Part shown: in pieces, positions 17,401 through 32,171 of the stretch
Layout of the letters: every line of letters begins with the position of its first letter
Position numbering within the stretch: position 1 is the stretch's first letter
Source: an uncultured Collinsella sp.
GTDB lineage: Bacteria; Actinomycetota; Coriobacteriia; Coriobacteriales; Coriobacteriaceae
Length of the DNA: 41,817 nucleotides
Direction: 5' to 3'
NCBI GenBank assembly: GCA_900545905.1
Contig: URBA01000001.1
Coordinates: 1-41,817, forward strand
Position numbers and translations under genes: made by a program
Notes under the pieces: model-generated
Seen by the model: only the letters and a program-made list of their open reading frames with translations
Told to the model about the DNA's origin: nothing
The model's database searches: none

Positions 17401-18444
17401 ATGGCGCTTTCCGAATATAGTCTGCGGCTGCTGGGCGCCTATGCCGAGCAGCCGTTCCTTATGGCTCCCATGGCGGGCGTGACCGACCCTGCCTACCGCA
17501 TCATGTGCCGCCGCCGCGGTGCCAACCTTGCCTACAGCGAGATGGTGAGCGTGGCGGGCCTTGCCTATGCCAGCAACAAAACGTGGCGCCTGGTGCTGCC
17601 GGCCGACGAGGAGCAGCAGATTTGCGTGCAGCTCTTTGGCTCCAAGCCCGATCAGTTTGCGAGTGCCGTCGCCGCCGTCGAGGAGCGCGTTGGCGATCGC
17701 CTGTCATTGATTGATATCAACATGGCTTGTCCGGCGCGCAAGGTCGTTACCAAGGGCGAGGGCTCGGCGCTTATGCGCACGCCCGATCTGGCCGAGAAGA
17801 TCGTCGAGGCGGCGGTGGGCGCGGCACATGTGCCCGTGACTGTAAAGATCCGCAAGGGCTTTTATGCCGAGGACCGTAATGCCGCGACGTTTGCCCAGAT
17901 GCTCGAAGGCGCCGGTGCCGCCGCAGTCGCCGTGCACGGTCGTTGTGCCACGCAGCTCTATACGGGCCAGGCCGATTGGTCTGTCGTCGATGAGGTTGCC
18001 GACGCTGTCGAGATTCCCGTGATTGGTTCGGGTGATGTGTTCTCGGCCGAGGACGCTGCTGAGCATCTGCAAGGCTCGGGTGCCAGCGCGGTGTTTATCG
18101 CGCGCGGCATCTACGGCAATCCGTGGGTGTTCGGTGATGCTCGCGCCCTTGCGCTCGATGGCACGCCGGTTCCTTCTCGCTCCTCGGTCGAGCGCCTGGA
18201 GGCTCTGCGTGAGCACCTGACGTTGACGCACGAGCTTCTGCCGCTTATGTCGCGCGCCCGTACGTACGCGAGCTGGTATCTAAAGGGCATGCCCCATGCC
18301 GCCGCCTGGCGCGCTCAGGTGGTGCGCTGCTCCACGTACGAGGAGTTTATGGCACTGGTCGATGATATCGAGCGCGATGTGGTGGCCTGCGAGGCTGCCC
18401 TTGCCGCCGGCGAATTGGTGCCCCCTCATCCGCTGGAGGCTTAA
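17401..18444 (+). CDS. dusB: tRNA-dihydrouridine synthase (DusB-like)
   Basis: MAPMAGVTD, SEMV, QLFG, DINMACP, GSALM, VTVKIR, HGR. Confidence 0.9.
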   Translation: MALSEYSLRLLGAYAEQPFLMAPMAGVTDPAYRIMCRRRGANLAYSEMVSVAGLAYASNKTWRLVLPADEEQQICVQLFGSKPDQFASAVAAVEERVGDRLSLIDINMACPARKVVTKGEGSALMRTPDLAEKIVEAAVGAAHVPVTVKIRKGFYAEDRNAATFAQMLEGAGAAAVAVHGRCATQLYTGQADWSVVDEVADAVEIPVIGSGDVFSAEDAAEHLQGSGASAVFIARGIYGNPWVFGDARALALDGTPVPSRSSVERLEALREHLTLTHELLPLMSRARTYASWYLKGMPHAAAWRAQVVRCSTYEEFMALVDDIERDVVACEAALAAGELVPPHPLEA

Positions 18445-27608: not shown

Positions 27609-29855
27609 ATGACACTCGTATCCAAGACCTTTGAGCTGTACGGCAAGACCTACACCTTTGAGTCGGGCGAGCTTGCCAAGCAGGCCACCGGCGCCTGCCT
27701 GGTCAAGCAGGGCGACACCACGATGCTCGACACCGTGGTCGTCTCCAAGGAGCGCAAGAACTACGACTTCTTCCCGCTGACCGTCGACTTCAACGAGAAG
27801 ATGTACGCCGCCGGCCGCATCCCGGGTGGTTACCTCAAGCGTGAGGGCCGTCCCAGCGAGAAGGCCACGCTCACCGCGCGCATGATCGACCGTCCGATTC
27901 GCCCGAGCTTCCCGGACGGCTTCCGCAACGAGGTGCACATCGTCGCCACCTCGCTCGTCGCCGATCAGGTCAACCCCTTCGACGTCATCAACGTCATGGG
28001 TGCTTCCCTGGCTATGACGCTCGGTGGCGTGCCCTTCGAGGGTCCGCTTGCCTGCGTGCGCATCGGCCGCAACGTGGAGACTGGCGAGTTTATCGTCAAC
28101 CCCACCTACGAGGAGCGCGAGAACTCCGATCTGGACCTGGAGCTGGGCGGCTCTGCCGACTTCATCTCGATGGTCGAGGCCGGCGCCGAGGAGATCTCCG
28201 AGGACGACATGCTCGCCGCCATGAAGTTTGGCCAGGAGGCCCTTGCTGCTTTCTGCCAGGCCCAGGACGAGTTTGTCGCCGAGTGGGAGCAGGTCAACGG
28301 CCCCATCGTCAAGAAGGAGTACCCGCTCGACCAGCCCGTCGAGGAGGTCCAGGAGCGCATCTTCGCCCACTACGACGAGATGGCGGCCGCCCTTCGTGAT
28401 GCCGACAAGCTCTCTCGTATCGGTAAGGTTGAGGCTCTGAAGGAGTCCATCCGCGCCGAGTTTACCGAGGAGGAGCAGGCCGCTTGGGAGCGCGAGATCC
28501 CCGTGGCGCTCAAGAAGCTCGAGAAGAAGGCCATGCGCACCATGGTCGTCGAGACTGGTGAGCGCGTCGACGGCCGTGCCGCCGATGAGATCCGTCCCAT
28601 CATGGTGAAGGACAACTACCTGCCGCTCGTTCACGGCTCCGGCCTGTTCCAGCGCGGCCAGACCCAGGTGCTTTCCGTCCTGTCGCTCGGCATGCTCAAC
28701 GAGGGCCAGCGTCTGGATACCATCGAGCCCACCGAGGGCAAGCGCTATATGCACCACTACAACTTCCCGCCGTTCTGCACCGGCGAGACCGGCCGCATGG
28801 GCAGCCCCAAGCGCCGCGAGATCGGCCATGGCAACCTGGCCGAGCGCGCCCTGCTTCCGGTGCTCCCCGACGAGAACGAGTTCCCCTACGCCATCCGCGT
28901 CGTCTCCGAGGTCATGGAGTCCAACGGCTCCTCTTCGATGGCTTCGACCTGCGGCTCCACGCTCGCCCTTATGGACGGCGGCGTGCCCATTAAGCGCCCG
29001 GTCTCCGGTATTGCCATGGGCTTGATCCAGGAGGAGGGCAAGACCGTGGTCCTGTCCGACATCCAGGGTCTCGAGGACTTCCTGGGCGACATGGACTTTA
29101 AGGTCACCGGCACCACCGAGGGCATCACCGCCCTCCAGATGGACAACAAGGCCACCGGCCTCACCTTCGACATCTTGGCCCGCGCCCTGCAGCAGGCCAA
29201 GGAGGGTCGCGCCTTCATTCTGCAGAAGATGCTCGATGTGATCCCCGAGCCGCGCCACACCACGCGCAGCACCGCTCCGCGCATCGTCTCCATTCAGGTT
29301 CCGACCGACAAGATCCGCGACGTCATCGGTTCCGGCGGTAAGGTCATCCGCGGCATCCAGGACGAGACCGGCGCCTCGGTCGACATCCAGGAGGACGGCA
29401 CCGTCTTTGTCGGCGGCACCGGCGAATCCGTCGACCAGGCCGTCGAGCGCATCAAGCTCATCATCAAGGTTCCCGAGCCGGGCGAGGAGTACACCGGTCG
29501 CGTGGTCTCCATCCAGCCCTTCGGCGCCTTCGTGAACCTGCTGCCCGGTAAGGACGGCCTGCTGCACATCTCCCGCGTCGCCAAGGGCCGCGTGGAGAAG
29601 GTCGAGGACGTCCTCAACGTCGGCGACGAGGTCAAGGTCGTCGTCATCGAGGTCGACGATCGCGGTAAGATCTCGCTCGATCGTCTGGATAAGCCCGAGG
29701 CCCCGGCACGTGCTGAGGGTGCCTCCGAGGGCGACGGCGAGCACTTCCAGCGTCGTGAGCGTCCGCGTCGCGAGCGCTCCGAGCGCAACGACCGTCCGCG
29801 CCGTCCCGGTGACAATGGAGGCCGCAAGCCCCGCCGTCACCACGACGCGGAGTAA
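27609..29855 (+). CDS. pnp: Polyribonucleotide nucleotidyltransferase (PNPase)
   Basis: DFFPLTVD, AAGRIPGG, DRPIRP, RREIGHG, ESNGSSSMAS, GDMDFKV, KH and S1 domains. Confidence 0.98.
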   Translation: MTLVSKTFELYGKTYTFESGELAKQATGACLVKQGDTTMLDTVVVSKERKNYDFFPLTVDFNEKMYAAGRIPGGYLKREGRPSEKATLTARMIDRPIRPSFPDGFRNEVHIVATSLVADQVNPFDVINVMGASLAMTLGGVPFEGPLACVRIGRNVETGEFIVNPTYEERENSDLDLELGGSADFISMVEAGAEEISEDDMLAAMKFGQEALAAFCQAQDEFVAEWEQVNGPIVKKEYPLDQPVEEVQERIFAHYDEMAAALRDADKLSRIGKVEALKESIRAEFTEEEQAAWEREIPVALKKLEKKAMRTMVVETGERVDGRAADEIRPIMVKDNYLPLVHGSGLFQRGQTQVLSVLSLGMLNEGQRLDTIEPTEGKRYMHHYNFPPFCTGETGRMGSPKRREIGHGNLAERALLPVLPDENEFPYAIRVVSEVMESNGSSSMASTCGSTLALMDGGVPIKRPVSGIAMGLIQEEGKTVVLSDIQGLEDFLGDMDFKVTGTTEGITALQMDNKATGLTFDILARALQQAKEGRAFILQKMLDVIPEPRHTTRSTAPRIVSIQVPTDKIRDVIGSGGKVIRGIQDETGASVDIQEDGTVFVGGTGESVDQAVERIKLIIKVPEPGEEYTGRVVSIQPFGAFVNLLPGKDGLLHISRVAKGRVEKVEDVLNVGDEVKVVVIEVDDRGKISLDRLDKPEAPARAEGASEGDGEHFQRRERPRRERSERNDRPRRPGDNGGRKPRRHHDAE

Positions 29856-29878: not shown

Positions 29879-29907
29879 AAGGGCGACTCCTAAGGGGTCG
29901 CCCTTTT
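29879..29907 (+). terminator. Intrinsic terminator after pnp
   Basis: AAGGGCGACTCC-TAA-GGGGTCGCCCTT-TT. Confidence 0.85.
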
Positions 29908-30047
29908 GCTATTCCCGGCGGGGTCCGCGGGTAAAGTTTCCTGCTCTACAGTCCTGCTCGCACGGAGAGCACATTAAGTGCTCTCCGGCTCGTGCGGAAC
30001 TCGCGATAAACTTTACCCGCGGCCCCCGCCGGGAATAGCAAAAGGGC
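29900..30047 (+). repeat. Long palindromic element copy 1 (40-bp arms + 68-nt conserved core)
   Basis: Arms 29900-29939 and 30008-30047 are reverse complements at 39/40 positions. Core 29940-30007 has the inner hairpin GGAGAGCAC-ATTAA-GTGCTCTCC. Confidence 0.92.
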
Positions 30048-30171
30048 TGGTTGGTGCCGCTCGCTATTGAGTTAGACAGTCTATTCAGTAGTCAGATTTC
30101 AGATCTGTAGATAGCCGCAGCAGCATTTCCTCAGATAAAACCTACCTAAATAAACCTGTCTCTTATTGGTA

Positions 30172-30312
30172 GGTCTGGTCTCAGCGGGCCCGGCACGGGC
30201 TAAGTTTATCGCGAGTTCCGCACGCAAAGGAAAGCACTTAATGTGCTTTCCGTCTTGCGCAGGACTGTAGAGCAGGAAACTTAGCCCGTGCCGGGCCCGC
30301 TGAGACCAGACC
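30172..30312 (-). repeat. Long palindromic element copy 2 (36-bp arms + 69-nt core), inverted relative to copy 1
   Basis: Arms 30172-30207 and 30277-30312 are perfect reverse complements. The reverse complement of core 30208-30276 matches core 1 at both ends (CCTGCTCTACAGTCCTGC, CGTGCGGAACTCGCGAT). Confidence 0.92.
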
Positions 30313-30500
30313 GGCGAGGTACACAGGTTCAGATGGGGCTTTGATGCATGGGTGGTCTGTTGGTGGGCAAATGGGTATCATACTGTGGTTATTGCATCGA
30401 CTCTGTGATGCTTTGTTGTACGTTCCCGGCGGTCGGTTTGCCAGAAGCGCCCCGTCGGTTGTTCCAGACCCGTTTCGAAGAAAGGAAACCACACGAACCT

Positions 30501-32171
30501 ATGGCAGCTAAAAAATCATCTCCCTTGAAGATCATTCCGCTCGGCGGCCTTGACGGCATCGGCAAGAACATGACGGTCTTCGAGTGCGGCGACGACATGG
30601 TGCTCGTTGACGCCGGCCTCATGTTCCCCGACGACTCTCAGCCCGGTATCGACCTGGTGCTTCCCGACTACACCTATGTCCTGGAGAACGAGGAGAAGCT
30701 CCGCGGCATCATCGTCACCCACGGCCACGAGGACCACACTGGTTCGCTTCCGTACCTGCTGCAGGATCTCAACAACAAGGTGCCCATCTTCTCGAGCAAG
30801 CTGACGCTCGGTTTTATCGAGGGCAAGCTCTCCGAGTTCCGCATCCGCGCACCTAAGTTCCGCGAGGTCAAGGGCGGAAGCCATGTCAATCTCGGTGGCA
30901 TCTCGCTCGATTTCTTCTCCATGACGCACTCCATTCCGGGTGCACTGGGCGTGTTCATTCGCACCAACCAGGGCACCGTTATGCACACGGGTGACTTTAA
31001 GCTCGATCAGACGCCCATCGACGGCGTCACGCCCGACTATGCCGCCATCAGCCGCTTTGCCAAGCAGGGCATCGACCTGCTGCTTTCCGACTCCACCAAC
31101 GCCACGGTTCCGGGCTTTACCAAGTCCGAGGCCGAGGTTGGTCCCAACCTGCTGCATGCCATCAAGAACGCCCCGGGTCGCGTGTTCGTCGCGTCGTTCT
31201 CGAGCCACATCCATCGCCTGCAGCAGATCTGCGACGCCGCCCGCAAGTGCGGCCGCAAGGTCGTCGTGACTGGACGTTCCATGCTCACCAACACCCGCGT
31301 GGCGCGCGAGTTGGGCTACCTCAACATCGACGATGCCGATATCATTGATGCCTTCGATATCGATAACCTGCCCGACGACAAGATCGTCGTCATGTGCACC
31401 GGTTCGCAGGGCGAGCCGCTGTCGGCCCTGTCCCGCATGGCCAACGGCGAGCACAAGACGCTTTCTATCCACGAAGGCGATACCGTCATTCTCTCGGCAA
31501 CTCCCGTTCCCGGCAACGAGAAGGCCGTTCAGCAGGTCGTCAACAGCCTGGCCAAGCTTGGCTGCGACGTCTGGGATAAGTCCCGCGCCCTCGTTCACGT
31601 CTCGGGGCACGGCAGCCAGGAGGAACTCAAGCTCCTCATGGCCATGGCCAAGCCCACCTACTTTATGCCGGTTCACGGCGAGGCCGTGCATCTGCGCGCC
31701 CATGCCCAGCTTGCTCGTAAGATGGGCATCAAGGATGATCACATCTTTATCCTCGATAACGGCGACACGCTCGAGATGCGTGGCGGTATCGTCAAGCGCG
31801 GTACGCCCGTCGAGTCCGGCGTCGTCTATGTTGACGGTCTGCGCATCGGCGACACCGACCCCATTGTCCTGCGCGATCGCCAAAAGCTCGCCAATGACGG
31901 TATGGTCACGGCCGTTGCCATCGTCTCGCTCAAGCATAAGAAGATCGAGGCTATCGAGTTCTCGGGCCGCGGTGTTTCGTTTGCCATCGACGACCAGTTC
32001 TCCGAGGATGCCTCAGCAGCCATCATGAAAACGATCGAGAAGGGTAAGTTTACCTTTACCAGCAGCGGCTCCGATGCCATTCGCAAAGCCGTGCGCGATT
32101 CGCTCTCCAACTTTATCTGGAGCCGTACGCGCACCCGTCCGATGATCATCCCGGTCGTCATGGAGGTTTAG
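30501..32171 (+). CDS. rnj: Ribonuclease J
   Basis: IIPLGGL.GIGKNM, THGHEDHTG, HSIP, HTGDFK, DSTNA, TGSQGEP, HVSGH, MPVHGE, RPMIIPV. Confidence 0.97.
   Translation: MAAKKSSPLKIIPLGGLDGIGKNMTVFECGDDMVLVDAGLMFPDDSQPGIDLVLPDYTYVLENEEKLRGIIVTHGHEDHTGSLPYLLQDLNNKVPIFSSKLTLGFIEGKLSEFRIRAPKFREVKGGSHVNLGGISLDFFSMTHSIPGALGVFIRTNQGTVMHTGDFKLDQTPIDGVTPDYAAISRFAKQGIDLLLSDSTNATVPGFTKSEAEVGPNLLHAIKNAPGRVFVASFSSHIHRLQQICDAARKCGRKVVVTGRSMLTNTRVARELGYLNIDDADIIDAFDIDNLPDDKIVVMCTGSQGEPLSALSRMANGEHKTLSIHEGDTVILSATPVPGNEKAVQQVVNSLAKLGCDVWDKSRALVHVSGHGSQEELKLLMAMAKPTYFMPVHGEAVHLRAHAQLARKMGIKDDHIFILDNGDTLEMRGGIVKRGTPVESGVVYVDGLRIGDTDPIVLRDRQKLANDGMVTAVAIVSLKHKKIEAIEFSGRGVSFAIDDQFSEDASAAIMKTIEKGKFTFTSSGSDAIRKAVRDSLSNFIWSRTRTRPMIIPVVMEV

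Follow-up and report, generated by a model that had tools for sequence, protein, structure and literature searches.

What are two long, nearly perfect palindromes doing between the genes pnp and rnj of an uncultured Collinsella sp.? The stretch of DNA that was analysed (contig URBA01000001.1, 41,817 nt over its full length, called the window hereafter) holds them in opposite orientation at 29900-30047 and 30172-30312, with a gap of 124 bp between them (30048-30171). An original prediction, made from the letters of the window, described them as a pair of elements with a conserved core and copy-specific arms and assigned them either to a family of mobile single-stranded DNA (ssDNA) hairpins or to a family of structured RNAs. 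We find that they belong to a multi-copy family which looks like an undescribed, hairpin-forming intergenic repeat of about 140 bp, so far found only in Collinsella.

Both copies in the window follow the same plan. Copy 1 consists of a left arm of 40 nt that ends inwards in AAGTTT (29900..29939), a core of 68 nt on the plus strand (29940..30007) and a right arm of 40 nt (30008..30047), and the two arms are complementary at 39/40 positions (98%). Its core is composed of block 1 (29940-29957), a linker (29958-29963), an apical hairpin with a 9-bp stem and an ATTAA loop (29964-29986), a second linker (29987-29990) and block 2 (29991-30007). Copy 2 reads on the minus strand. Here, a 36-nt arm adjoining the spacer (30172..30207) is complementary at 36/36 positions to a 36-nt arm on the rnj side (30277..30312), which is followed by the conserved rnj leader, and the 69-nt core in between (30208..30276) comprises block 2 (30208-30224), the apical hairpin (30229-30251) and block 1 (30259-30276). 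Both blocks are identical in the two copies. The 18-nt block 1, CCTGCTCTACAGTCCTGC, has its sole two window matches here if up to three mismatches are allowed (0.03 expected), and the same is true of the 17-nt block 2, CGTGCGGAACTCGCGAT (0.37 expected). The 9-bp inner stem differs between the copies by one compensated pair (GGAGAGCAC/GTGCTCTCC versus GGAAAGCAC/GTGCTTTCC). A covariance model (R1), built from 55 distinct sequences of the family, scores the core of copy 1 with 114.7 bits on the plus strand and 60 on the minus strand, and that of copy 2 with 127 bits on the minus strand and 63.2 on the plus strand. Scanning the whole window with R1 revealed no third copy, and no long palindrome lacking the core (an 'empty' one) was present in the window. 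Folded as RNA, each element reaches -108 to -111 kcal/mol compared to about -50 in dinucleotide shuffles (z -13.5 to -15.2), and 0/200 shuffles attained the energy of either. Folded as DNA, the values are -67.5 to -69.6 compared to about -24 in shuffles (z -14 to -16), equally good for both strands. The earlier description of the sequence was thus correct in its cores, 124-bp gap, end blocks, compensated stem pair and arm complementarity. One of its statements requires correction, namely that the arms of the two copies share little beyond AAGTTT/AAACTT, since a graded inner part of the arm is shared throughout the family.

To determine the extent of this family, species-representative genomes were scanned with the exact 17-mer of block 1 as seed, and the family counts given below are those among the matches listed. 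The 17-mer was found in at least 124 stretches of public genomes, 121 of which match R1. Where the listed loci came with 2-kb flanks, R1 matched 78/80; the two that it missed, in Verrucomicrobiaceae (L040) and Desulfovibrio (L058), are chance matches in unrelated phyla. Where they came with 300-nt flanks it matched 43/44, and the one miss (L085) runs into adapter-like sequence right after block 1. Nearly all listed records are labelled Collinsella or Coriobacteriaceae, and the few exceptions carry the same Collinsella loci. Among the latter are bins assigned to Methanobrevibacter smithii or Oscillospiraceae (L019, L049, L098, L085) that hold the pnp and phosphotransferase system (PTS) sites of Collinsella, which suggests contamination of the bins. 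In a finished Collinsella aerofaciens record of 899,693 bp (filed as plasmid), core and inner arms occur at 13 places, and its pnp-rnj interval carries both copies and gives the top match. Three sites were confirmed in this annotated record, in which we inspected the pnp-rnj interval, the rpoC/rpsL region and a site with a gene resembling REP-associated tyrosine transposases (RAYT), as well as, by coordinates, rplC and groES. Taken together, the 17-mer scan, the finished record and the R1 matches bear out the predicted multi-copy family with its conserved core and copy-specific arms.

The family could not be linked to a named one. A search of the whole window against Rfam 15 gave no match at the gathering threshold, in line with the earlier remark that the element was not recognized as a named one. 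At E values up to 10, six weak matches appeared between 29800 and 30520, the best of which (mir-3160, 47.1 bits against a threshold of 80) reflects a generic long stem only. A phage collection contained no match to the element, and a plasmid collection only the mislabelled chromosome-sized Collinsella record plus one 25-nt chance match in Sphingobium. Literature on Collinsella palindromic or intergenic repeats, Collinsella-1, Collinsella invertons and miniature inverted-repeat transposable elements (MITEs) of Coriobacteriia yielded nothing on this family. The passages of PMC8040213 consulted, a study that reports 250 palindromic candidate RNAs, describe none for the Collinsella element, while its supplementary tables could list it. 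None of the three outcomes named beforehand as speaking against a new family, i.e., a match to an Rfam or REP (repetitive extragenic palindromic) family, a sole local duplication or MITE-like arms, was seen.

Across the family, elements are 123-165 bp long and comprise locus-specific, near-perfectly complementary arms of 27-48 bp around an asymmetric apex of 68-69 nt. This apex contains two near-invariant blocks, which pair in part (one 5-nt and two 1-nt stretches stay unpaired), plus a 9-bp hairpin with a constant top, CAC-ATTAA-GTG, and a stem that occurs in five variants, all of them Watson-Crick. The consensus fold accordingly consists of the arms, three short helices between the conserved blocks and the 9-bp apical hairpin. 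The invariance of block 1 is given by construction because its exact 17-mer served as seed. Over 55 distinct sequences and 39 pairs, 99.3% of positions are paired, compared to 79.4% in shuffles and 35-46% with the partner column slid, whereby the percentage for the arms is partly a product of selection because the underlying alignment (A3) was filtered on inner-arm complementarity. Changes on both sides were found at 22/39 pairs, and the apical hairpin covaries at 4/9 pairs. Between loci, the inner arm is mostly shared over 2-9 nt, at the maximum over 16-17 nt with at most one mismatch, and the outer ends differ. Read by eye, the arms follow a loose pattern, CCCGG...GGGGCGGG...AT-rich...AAGTTT. 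The left arm, 5' of the core strand, is rich in G and T (C 554, T 443 and A 303 against 855 G), with G exceeding C in 46/57 distinct arms. The first bases of the right flank are usually T or TG.

Where do such elements reside? Flank clustering and Pfam analysis revealed at least 13 distinct intergenic sites beside housekeeping genes, and copies occupy the same orthologous sites in many Collinsella genomes. Among these sites are those between the genes for a solute-binding protein and a trmA-like methyltransferase, a histidine phosphatase and rplC, a metallophosphatase and an Rrf2 regulator, a PTS EIIC-EIIA gene and ptsH-ptsI, tsaD and cstA, an amidohydrolase and groES-groEL, a sulfatase and a flavodoxin, as well as pnp and rnj; a further one is found among rpoC, an extracytoplasmic function (ECF) sigma factor gene and a DUF4179 gene, with rpsL beyond. 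The elements are oriented both ways relative to their neighbours: if the nearest gene is taken as reference, 5 copies are in sense and at least 8 in antisense orientation. If single copies between co-directional genes are considered, the core strand (block 1 to block 2) is antisense in 6/6, of which L054 and L062 may be one locus. Where a copy directly follows a stop codon in a convergent or paired setting, it is sense to the gene that ends there. Three of the sites hold two copies each, namely pnp-rnj, tsaD-cstA and sulfatase-flavodoxin, the last with one of its copies decayed (L044 1743-1791). Each pair is convergent, such that block 2 of either copy points to the spacer between them, which measures about 120-140 nt (124 and 134 nt where both copies are intact). 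No decayed partner was found beside single copies; the weak R1 matches there are terminators, ends of tRNA genes (by eye) or unrelated hairpins.

A multi-copy family of this kind could consist of non-autonomous mobile hairpins, moved in trans as ssDNA by a Y1/HUH enzyme of the REPIN/RAYT or IS200/IS605 kind or by another recombinase that recognizes the apex. Y1 transposases read their ends as a hairpin flanked by conserved sequence, and single-strand transposons show an orientation bias relative to replication, to which the 6/6 bias of single copies would correspond. The window even encodes a RAYT-like Y1 transposase at 1244-2017 on the plus strand (Pfam Y1_Tnp, 31.8 bits; NCBIfam REP-associated tyrosine transposase, 56.6 bits, under the cut-off of 80). 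However, this gene is flanked by inverted repeats of its own, 49 nt long and 92% complementary (1066-1114 and 2054-2102), each of which is a doublet of the 16-mer CTCATTGGGGACAGAC around a small hairpin. The 16-mer has four copies in the window, only at the RAYT-like gene, and a fifth match with three mismatches at 17979, while its 14-nt core CATTGGGGACAGAC was found in 0/125 loci. A second RAYT-like gene (L126), in the finished record, has no R1 match above 11.4 bits nearby. Neither of the two RAYT-like genes examined is flanked by family copies, and no link of the element to RAYT was found. The stretch 1066-2102 is further marked by a lower G+C content (0.51).

Other marks of mobility were looked for as well. 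Pfam detected no transposase or recombinase among 38 neighbouring open reading frames (ORFs) at 13 representative loci, and as an autonomous parent element these ORFs and the window offered nothing except the unrelated RAYT-like gene, whole genomes not having been searched. At the boundaries of 29 representative copies no direct repeat indicative of a target-site duplication was found. Conservation is lowest at the outer arm ends, which form no conserved terminal inverted repeats, and since target duplications are missing as well, it is not an ordinary MITE. No empty site was seen among the loci compared, which did not permit a proper search. One locus could nevertheless be read in favour of movement: L062 carries the element on the opposite side of the sigma factor/DUF4179 cassette if compared to L127 and L054. 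In this single metagenome assembly, the element and some 26 nt of flank on either side, identical in sequence, are placed between rpoC and the sigma factor gene (1780-2260), whereas L127 from a finished genome (1440-1860, 3395-3710) and three assemblies carry it between the DUF4179 gene and rpsL. The placement in L062 is either a rearrangement or a mis-join. Taken together with the residence of copies at orthologous sites across many genomes, we consider mobility rather improbable, and this part of the original prediction was not borne out.

How, then, do arms that differ from locus to locus stay complementary? Perfect complementarity was found in 40/57 distinct arms with a length of 25 bp or more, and 2155 arm pairs contain 27 mismatches, only 10 of which are G.T or T.G. 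Comparing closely related alleles within the classes of a site over 718 arm columns, we counted 26 changes that affect both arms (17 transitions and 9 transversions) versus 21 unpaired states. Such exactly compensating changes are too frequent for independent mutation, and transversions have no wobble route, which points to a DNA-level process, either intrastrand template switching or repair of a folded strand, in which one arm is the template for the other. Passages of PMC8794818 and PMC8604942 describe that template switching homogenizes the arms of inverted repeats. The claim that arms are homogenized within a copy is consequently supported, both-arm changes being common, including transversions and lacking G.T intermediates. 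That arms are regenerated per copy was too strong a statement. Sites carry discrete alleles. What the alleles of a given site have in common is the outer 8-12 bp of the arm; what one site has in common with another is the inner arm (up to 16-17 nt) and core modules, and this fits common descent plus conversion. The overlap of copy 1 with the pnp terminator had also suggested that arms might be copied from the target flank, an idea rejected because loci share inner sequence and pattern.

Two comparisons between strains illustrate both processes. The arms of copy 2 in the window and in another strain are 77.8% identical over 36 positions, each version being perfectly self-complementary. The arms of copy 1 in the window and in the finished strain (L001) are 97.5% identical, yet the central module of linker and hairpin differs and equals one found at other family loci. 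Such a swap indicates that central apex modules are exchanged between loci, probably by gene conversion that is anchored in the invariant blocks.

If conversion within and between copies explained everything, the family could be a neutral or selfish palindrome that is uniform for no other reason. Both kinds of conversion are the best supported part of our analysis, and at least one copy, the one in L044, has decayed. Conversion between copies, however, cannot preserve locus-specific arms, and these are identical where the adjoining DNA differs by 4-22%. In five genomes that form one class at the rplC site, a 48-nt arm and a 69-nt core are identical, whereas identity drops to 78-96% in the 120 nt that follow the arm on the outside. 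At the site between the solute-binding protein and trmA-like genes, one class shows identical arms and cores of 98.6-100% identity next to left flanks that differ by 4-8%; a second class compared to the first is 77-83% identical in the arm and 85.5% in the core. Although these comparisons are pairwise and not phylogenetically independent, locus-specific arms that stay identical while the adjoining 120 nt diverge argue for purifying selection acting on the whole hairpin. Furthermore, whatever process perfects the arms leaves the unpaired positions of the apex 'uncorrected'. A purely neutral or selfish element thus appears quite improbable to us.

Perfect arms might also serve as a flip-flop switch, either by letting the asymmetric core invert or, where cores are paired, by inverting the spacer between them. 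The core is indeed inverted relative to both flanks in L082 if compared to the other 13 members of the rplC site (1/14 assemblies), and probably in L073 as well, and inversion of spacers by template switching at inverted repeats is mentioned in a part of PMC8604942. However, these one or two cases stem from metagenome assemblies, in which a perfect inverted repeat of 48 bp can be resolved wrongly, and for this reason we do not rely on them. A consensus scan detected no promoter-like site in or beside the elements, and no -35/-10 hexamers conserved across the core types were recognized by eye. Spacer inversion at the pairs was looked for too, with no contig showing an inverted spacer and hybrid sequences running into the outer flanks. 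A switch of this type is therefore highly improbable.

The main rival is a cis-acting RNA hairpin that is transcribed together with the adjoining genes and functions on the mRNA, as block to 3'-exonucleases, RNase III site, terminator or insulator, DNA-level copying being merely the way in which the stem is maintained. REP, ERIC (enterobacterial repetitive intergenic consensus) and Correia elements are reported to act as such RNA hairpins. Copies start 8-45 nt after the stop codons of tsaD, a gene of 651 amino acids, the flavodoxin, sulfatase and histidine phosphatase genes and pnp, and highly expressed genes are found among the neighbours (rplC, groES, ptsH, rpsL, rpoC). The RNA folds are extremely stable, the apical hairpin shows the covariation mentioned above, and according to the portions of PMC8794818 considered here template switching can create and maintain RNA hairpins. 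What speaks against this explanation is first of all orientation: with sense and antisense copies, the transcript would contain one strand of the conserved, asymmetric apex in some cases and its complement in others. Second, copy 1 lies behind a canonical predicted intrinsic terminator of pnp (29879..29905, plus strand; 12-bp stem, TAA loop, T-tract), a site that belongs to the context and not to the repeat family and that reaches with its descending stem and T-tract into the first bases of the left arm; the arms themselves are not followed by a T-tract. Third, selection on RNA alone would tolerate G.U pairs, yet wobble pairs are nearly absent (10/2155). Fourth, a single mismatch in a 40-bp stem should be near-neutral for RNA, yet the arms are conserved above the neighbouring DNA and beyond the need of such a stem. 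For these reasons we lean toward a function on folded DNA rather than RNA, and the assignment to a structured RNA family was not confirmed, given both orientations to transcription, a copy that intrudes on the pnp terminator and arms that look DNA-templated. An RNA function is in our view unlikely, while it deserves more weight than the other rivals.

The reading that we tentatively prefer, at a little less than even confidence, is that of a resident intergenic palindrome akin to REP, BIME (bacterial interspersed mosaic element) and ERIC sequences, whose folded DNA (or transcript) would present the apex to a host factor and thereby mark the boundaries of transcription units. Folding would take place at the DNA level, either as a cruciform or as a hairpin in strands that are single during replication. 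Intrastrand template switching or hairpin-directed repair might then copy one arm onto the other, while conversion between copies and purifying selection would keep the apex. In folded form, the element may offer its asymmetric apex as site for a host protein, in the manner of REP/BIME and ERIC-type repeats, and so mark transcription-unit boundaries, which is the weakest step of the proposal. In the window, the pair brackets the 124-bp spacer between the terminator of pnp and the putative promoter and leader of rnj. The element would act on DNA more than on RNA, although co-transcribed copies would form RNA hairpins as well. The strictly conserved asymmetric apex represents a defined bait for whatever reads it, and the finding would gain considerably in interest if such a factor acts on folded DNA.

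Several observations weigh against this preferred reading. The 6/6 antisense bias of single copies has no explanation in it, and neither have the shared convergent geometry and spacing of the pairs (the decayed copy in L044 could be measured only roughly) nor the G-richness of the left arm, with 855 G versus 554 C. DNA-level arm copying can also maintain RNA hairpins and is hence compatible with an RNA function. Mismatches of the G.T and A.C type stand at 10 versus 6, an excess that is not significant either way, and an attempt to choose the acting strand from these wobble pairs was uninformative. The helices inside the conserved blocks are invariant and gain no support from covariation because they never vary. 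Further points concern the material. Alignment A3 kept only elements with at least 18/20 complementary inner-arm positions, and those dropped were mostly hybrids with two flanks from different loci or alleles. Since the hybrids continue into the outer flanks and join different loci or alleles, they were treated as assembly joins through the repeat; about 11/79 distinct complete elements have non-matching arms and look like such joins. Most sequences stem from metagenome-assembled contigs, 48/128 true 17-mer matches lying within 160 nt of a contig end, and an exact 17-mer as seed under-samples diverged copies.

Some of these points would be accounted for if the family were a new class of ssDNA site, with an apex that is recognized and perhaps nicked by an enzyme and with arms rebuilt by hairpin-primed synthesis at each use. 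We regard this as a long shot. If true, it would cover the perfect locus-specific arms, the both-arm changes including transversions and the occasional flip of the core, as well as the fixed distance within convergent pairs and the strand bias that single copies show with respect to the direction of genes and probably of replication.

Compared to known systems, the element looks like an undescribed form of REP/ERIC-type repeats rather than a new kind of system. It is multi-copy, non-coding, intergenic and hairpin-forming and occupies conserved sites, as is characteristic of the loosely defined class of REP/BIME/ERIC-type palindromic repeats. ERIC sequences, also termed intergenic repeat units (IRU), come close: they are intergenic imperfect palindromes of about 127-150 bp with moderate copy number at orthologous sites, best conserved in the centre, with compensated stem changes and no encoded transposase. 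However, there is no sequence similarity, the host belongs to the Coriobacteriia within the Actinomycetota instead of the enterobacteria, and in Collinsella each locus has arms of its own, essentially perfect ones, around an asymmetric apex, with copies often arranged as convergent pairs. BIMEs resemble the family as intergenic mosaics of inverted repeats around a conserved central motif, located between genes of the same or neighbouring operons, and extra motifs accompany them as a second small repeat, module M (see below), accompanies some Collinsella copies. In contrast, REP units are sequence-conserved and about 35 nt long, whereas in Collinsella the arms are long and variable, the centre is conserved and a bound protein is only putative.

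The remaining candidates differ more strongly. REPINs share with the element that they are hairpin-forming non-coding repeats, and a RAYT-like gene is present in the same window; according to the passages of PMC3337134 consulted, though, REPINs have conserved REP ends and a variable loop. This is the opposite of the conserved apex and variable arms found here, and the RAYT-like genes lack a flanking Collinsella element. MITEs such as Correia are comparable in size, intergenic position and hairpin folding, whereas the Collinsella family has neither conserved terminal inverted repeats nor target-site duplications, and a parent insertion sequence was not found among the neighbouring ORFs or in the window. 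Integron attC sites also fold as single strands and have conserved unpaired or extrahelical positions in a stem that varies in sequence and keeps its pairing. In attC, however, conservation resides in boxes at the stem base and the apex varies, whereas the arm bases of the Collinsella element are unconserved, its neighbours are housekeeping genes, and it comes without integrase, cassette array or R-box. Intrinsic terminators differ as well, as the arms of 27-48 bp are not followed by a T-run.

Such repeat families have hardly been described in Coriobacteriia. With 26 both-arm changes, a third of them transversions, this one provides a clean natural example of arm-to-arm copying in palindromes, which bears on the origin and persistence of perfect stems. 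In addition, the element breaks short-read assemblies of a very common gut genus and thus matters for the quality of metagenome-assembled Collinsella genomes.

Returning to the window, the genes around the pair are housekeeping genes according to Pfam, such as recO, rpsO, ftsK and recA. The gene pnp corresponds to the ORF at 27609-29855 (Pfam RNase_PH, S1, KH and PNPase), and rnj (Pfam RNase J domains) begins with the start codon at 30502, marked at ATGGCAGCT. Aligned with the orthologous interval of another strain, the AT-richer spacer of 124 bp (30048..30171) is poorly conserved, whereas the rnj leader downstream (30313-30501, about 190 nt) is near-identical. The leader contains a terminator-like hairpin (30394-30411), which besides the pnp terminator is the only terminator-type prediction near the elements, and may represent an autoregulatory 5' untranslated region of RNase J.

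The spacer of the window shows by eye no homology to that of the tsaD/cstA pair (L038), and a blast search with it returned no contig of the tsaD/cstA locus. The only piece that it shares with another site is module M (like CCAAAAAGGGACAGGTTTATTTTGG), common to the pnp and rpoC/rpsL sites. Module M lies beside copy 2 at about 30126-30169, with a 25-nt core at 30145-30169 on the minus strand, and also beside the element upstream of rpsL (L127 1698-1722 and 3493-3517; L037 67 and 1862). It gave 15 matches in the 336 kb of sequence analysed versus 0 in shuffles. In two genomes, an inverted pair of it brackets the ECF sigma factor and DUF4179 genes between rpoC and rpsL.

One contig (L105/L106) deviates in its pnp-rnj interval, the two cores being about 950 nt apart, some 630 nt more than elsewhere. 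In the 300-nt flanks available, an ORF starting with MTNKVEWDRMIAGELY follows copy 1 and looks acetyltransferase-like. L105 had been considered as an empty pnp-rnj site, and this was rejected because both copies are present with the ORF between them.

Finally, long palindromes without the family core occur in the vicinity of family members. A long near-perfect hairpin with arms of about 30 bp lies downstream of the PTS gene (L009 2205-2295), and a nested palindrome surrounds a bidirectional terminator behind rpoC (L127 3561-3660). Further palindrome families may thus exist in Collinsella.

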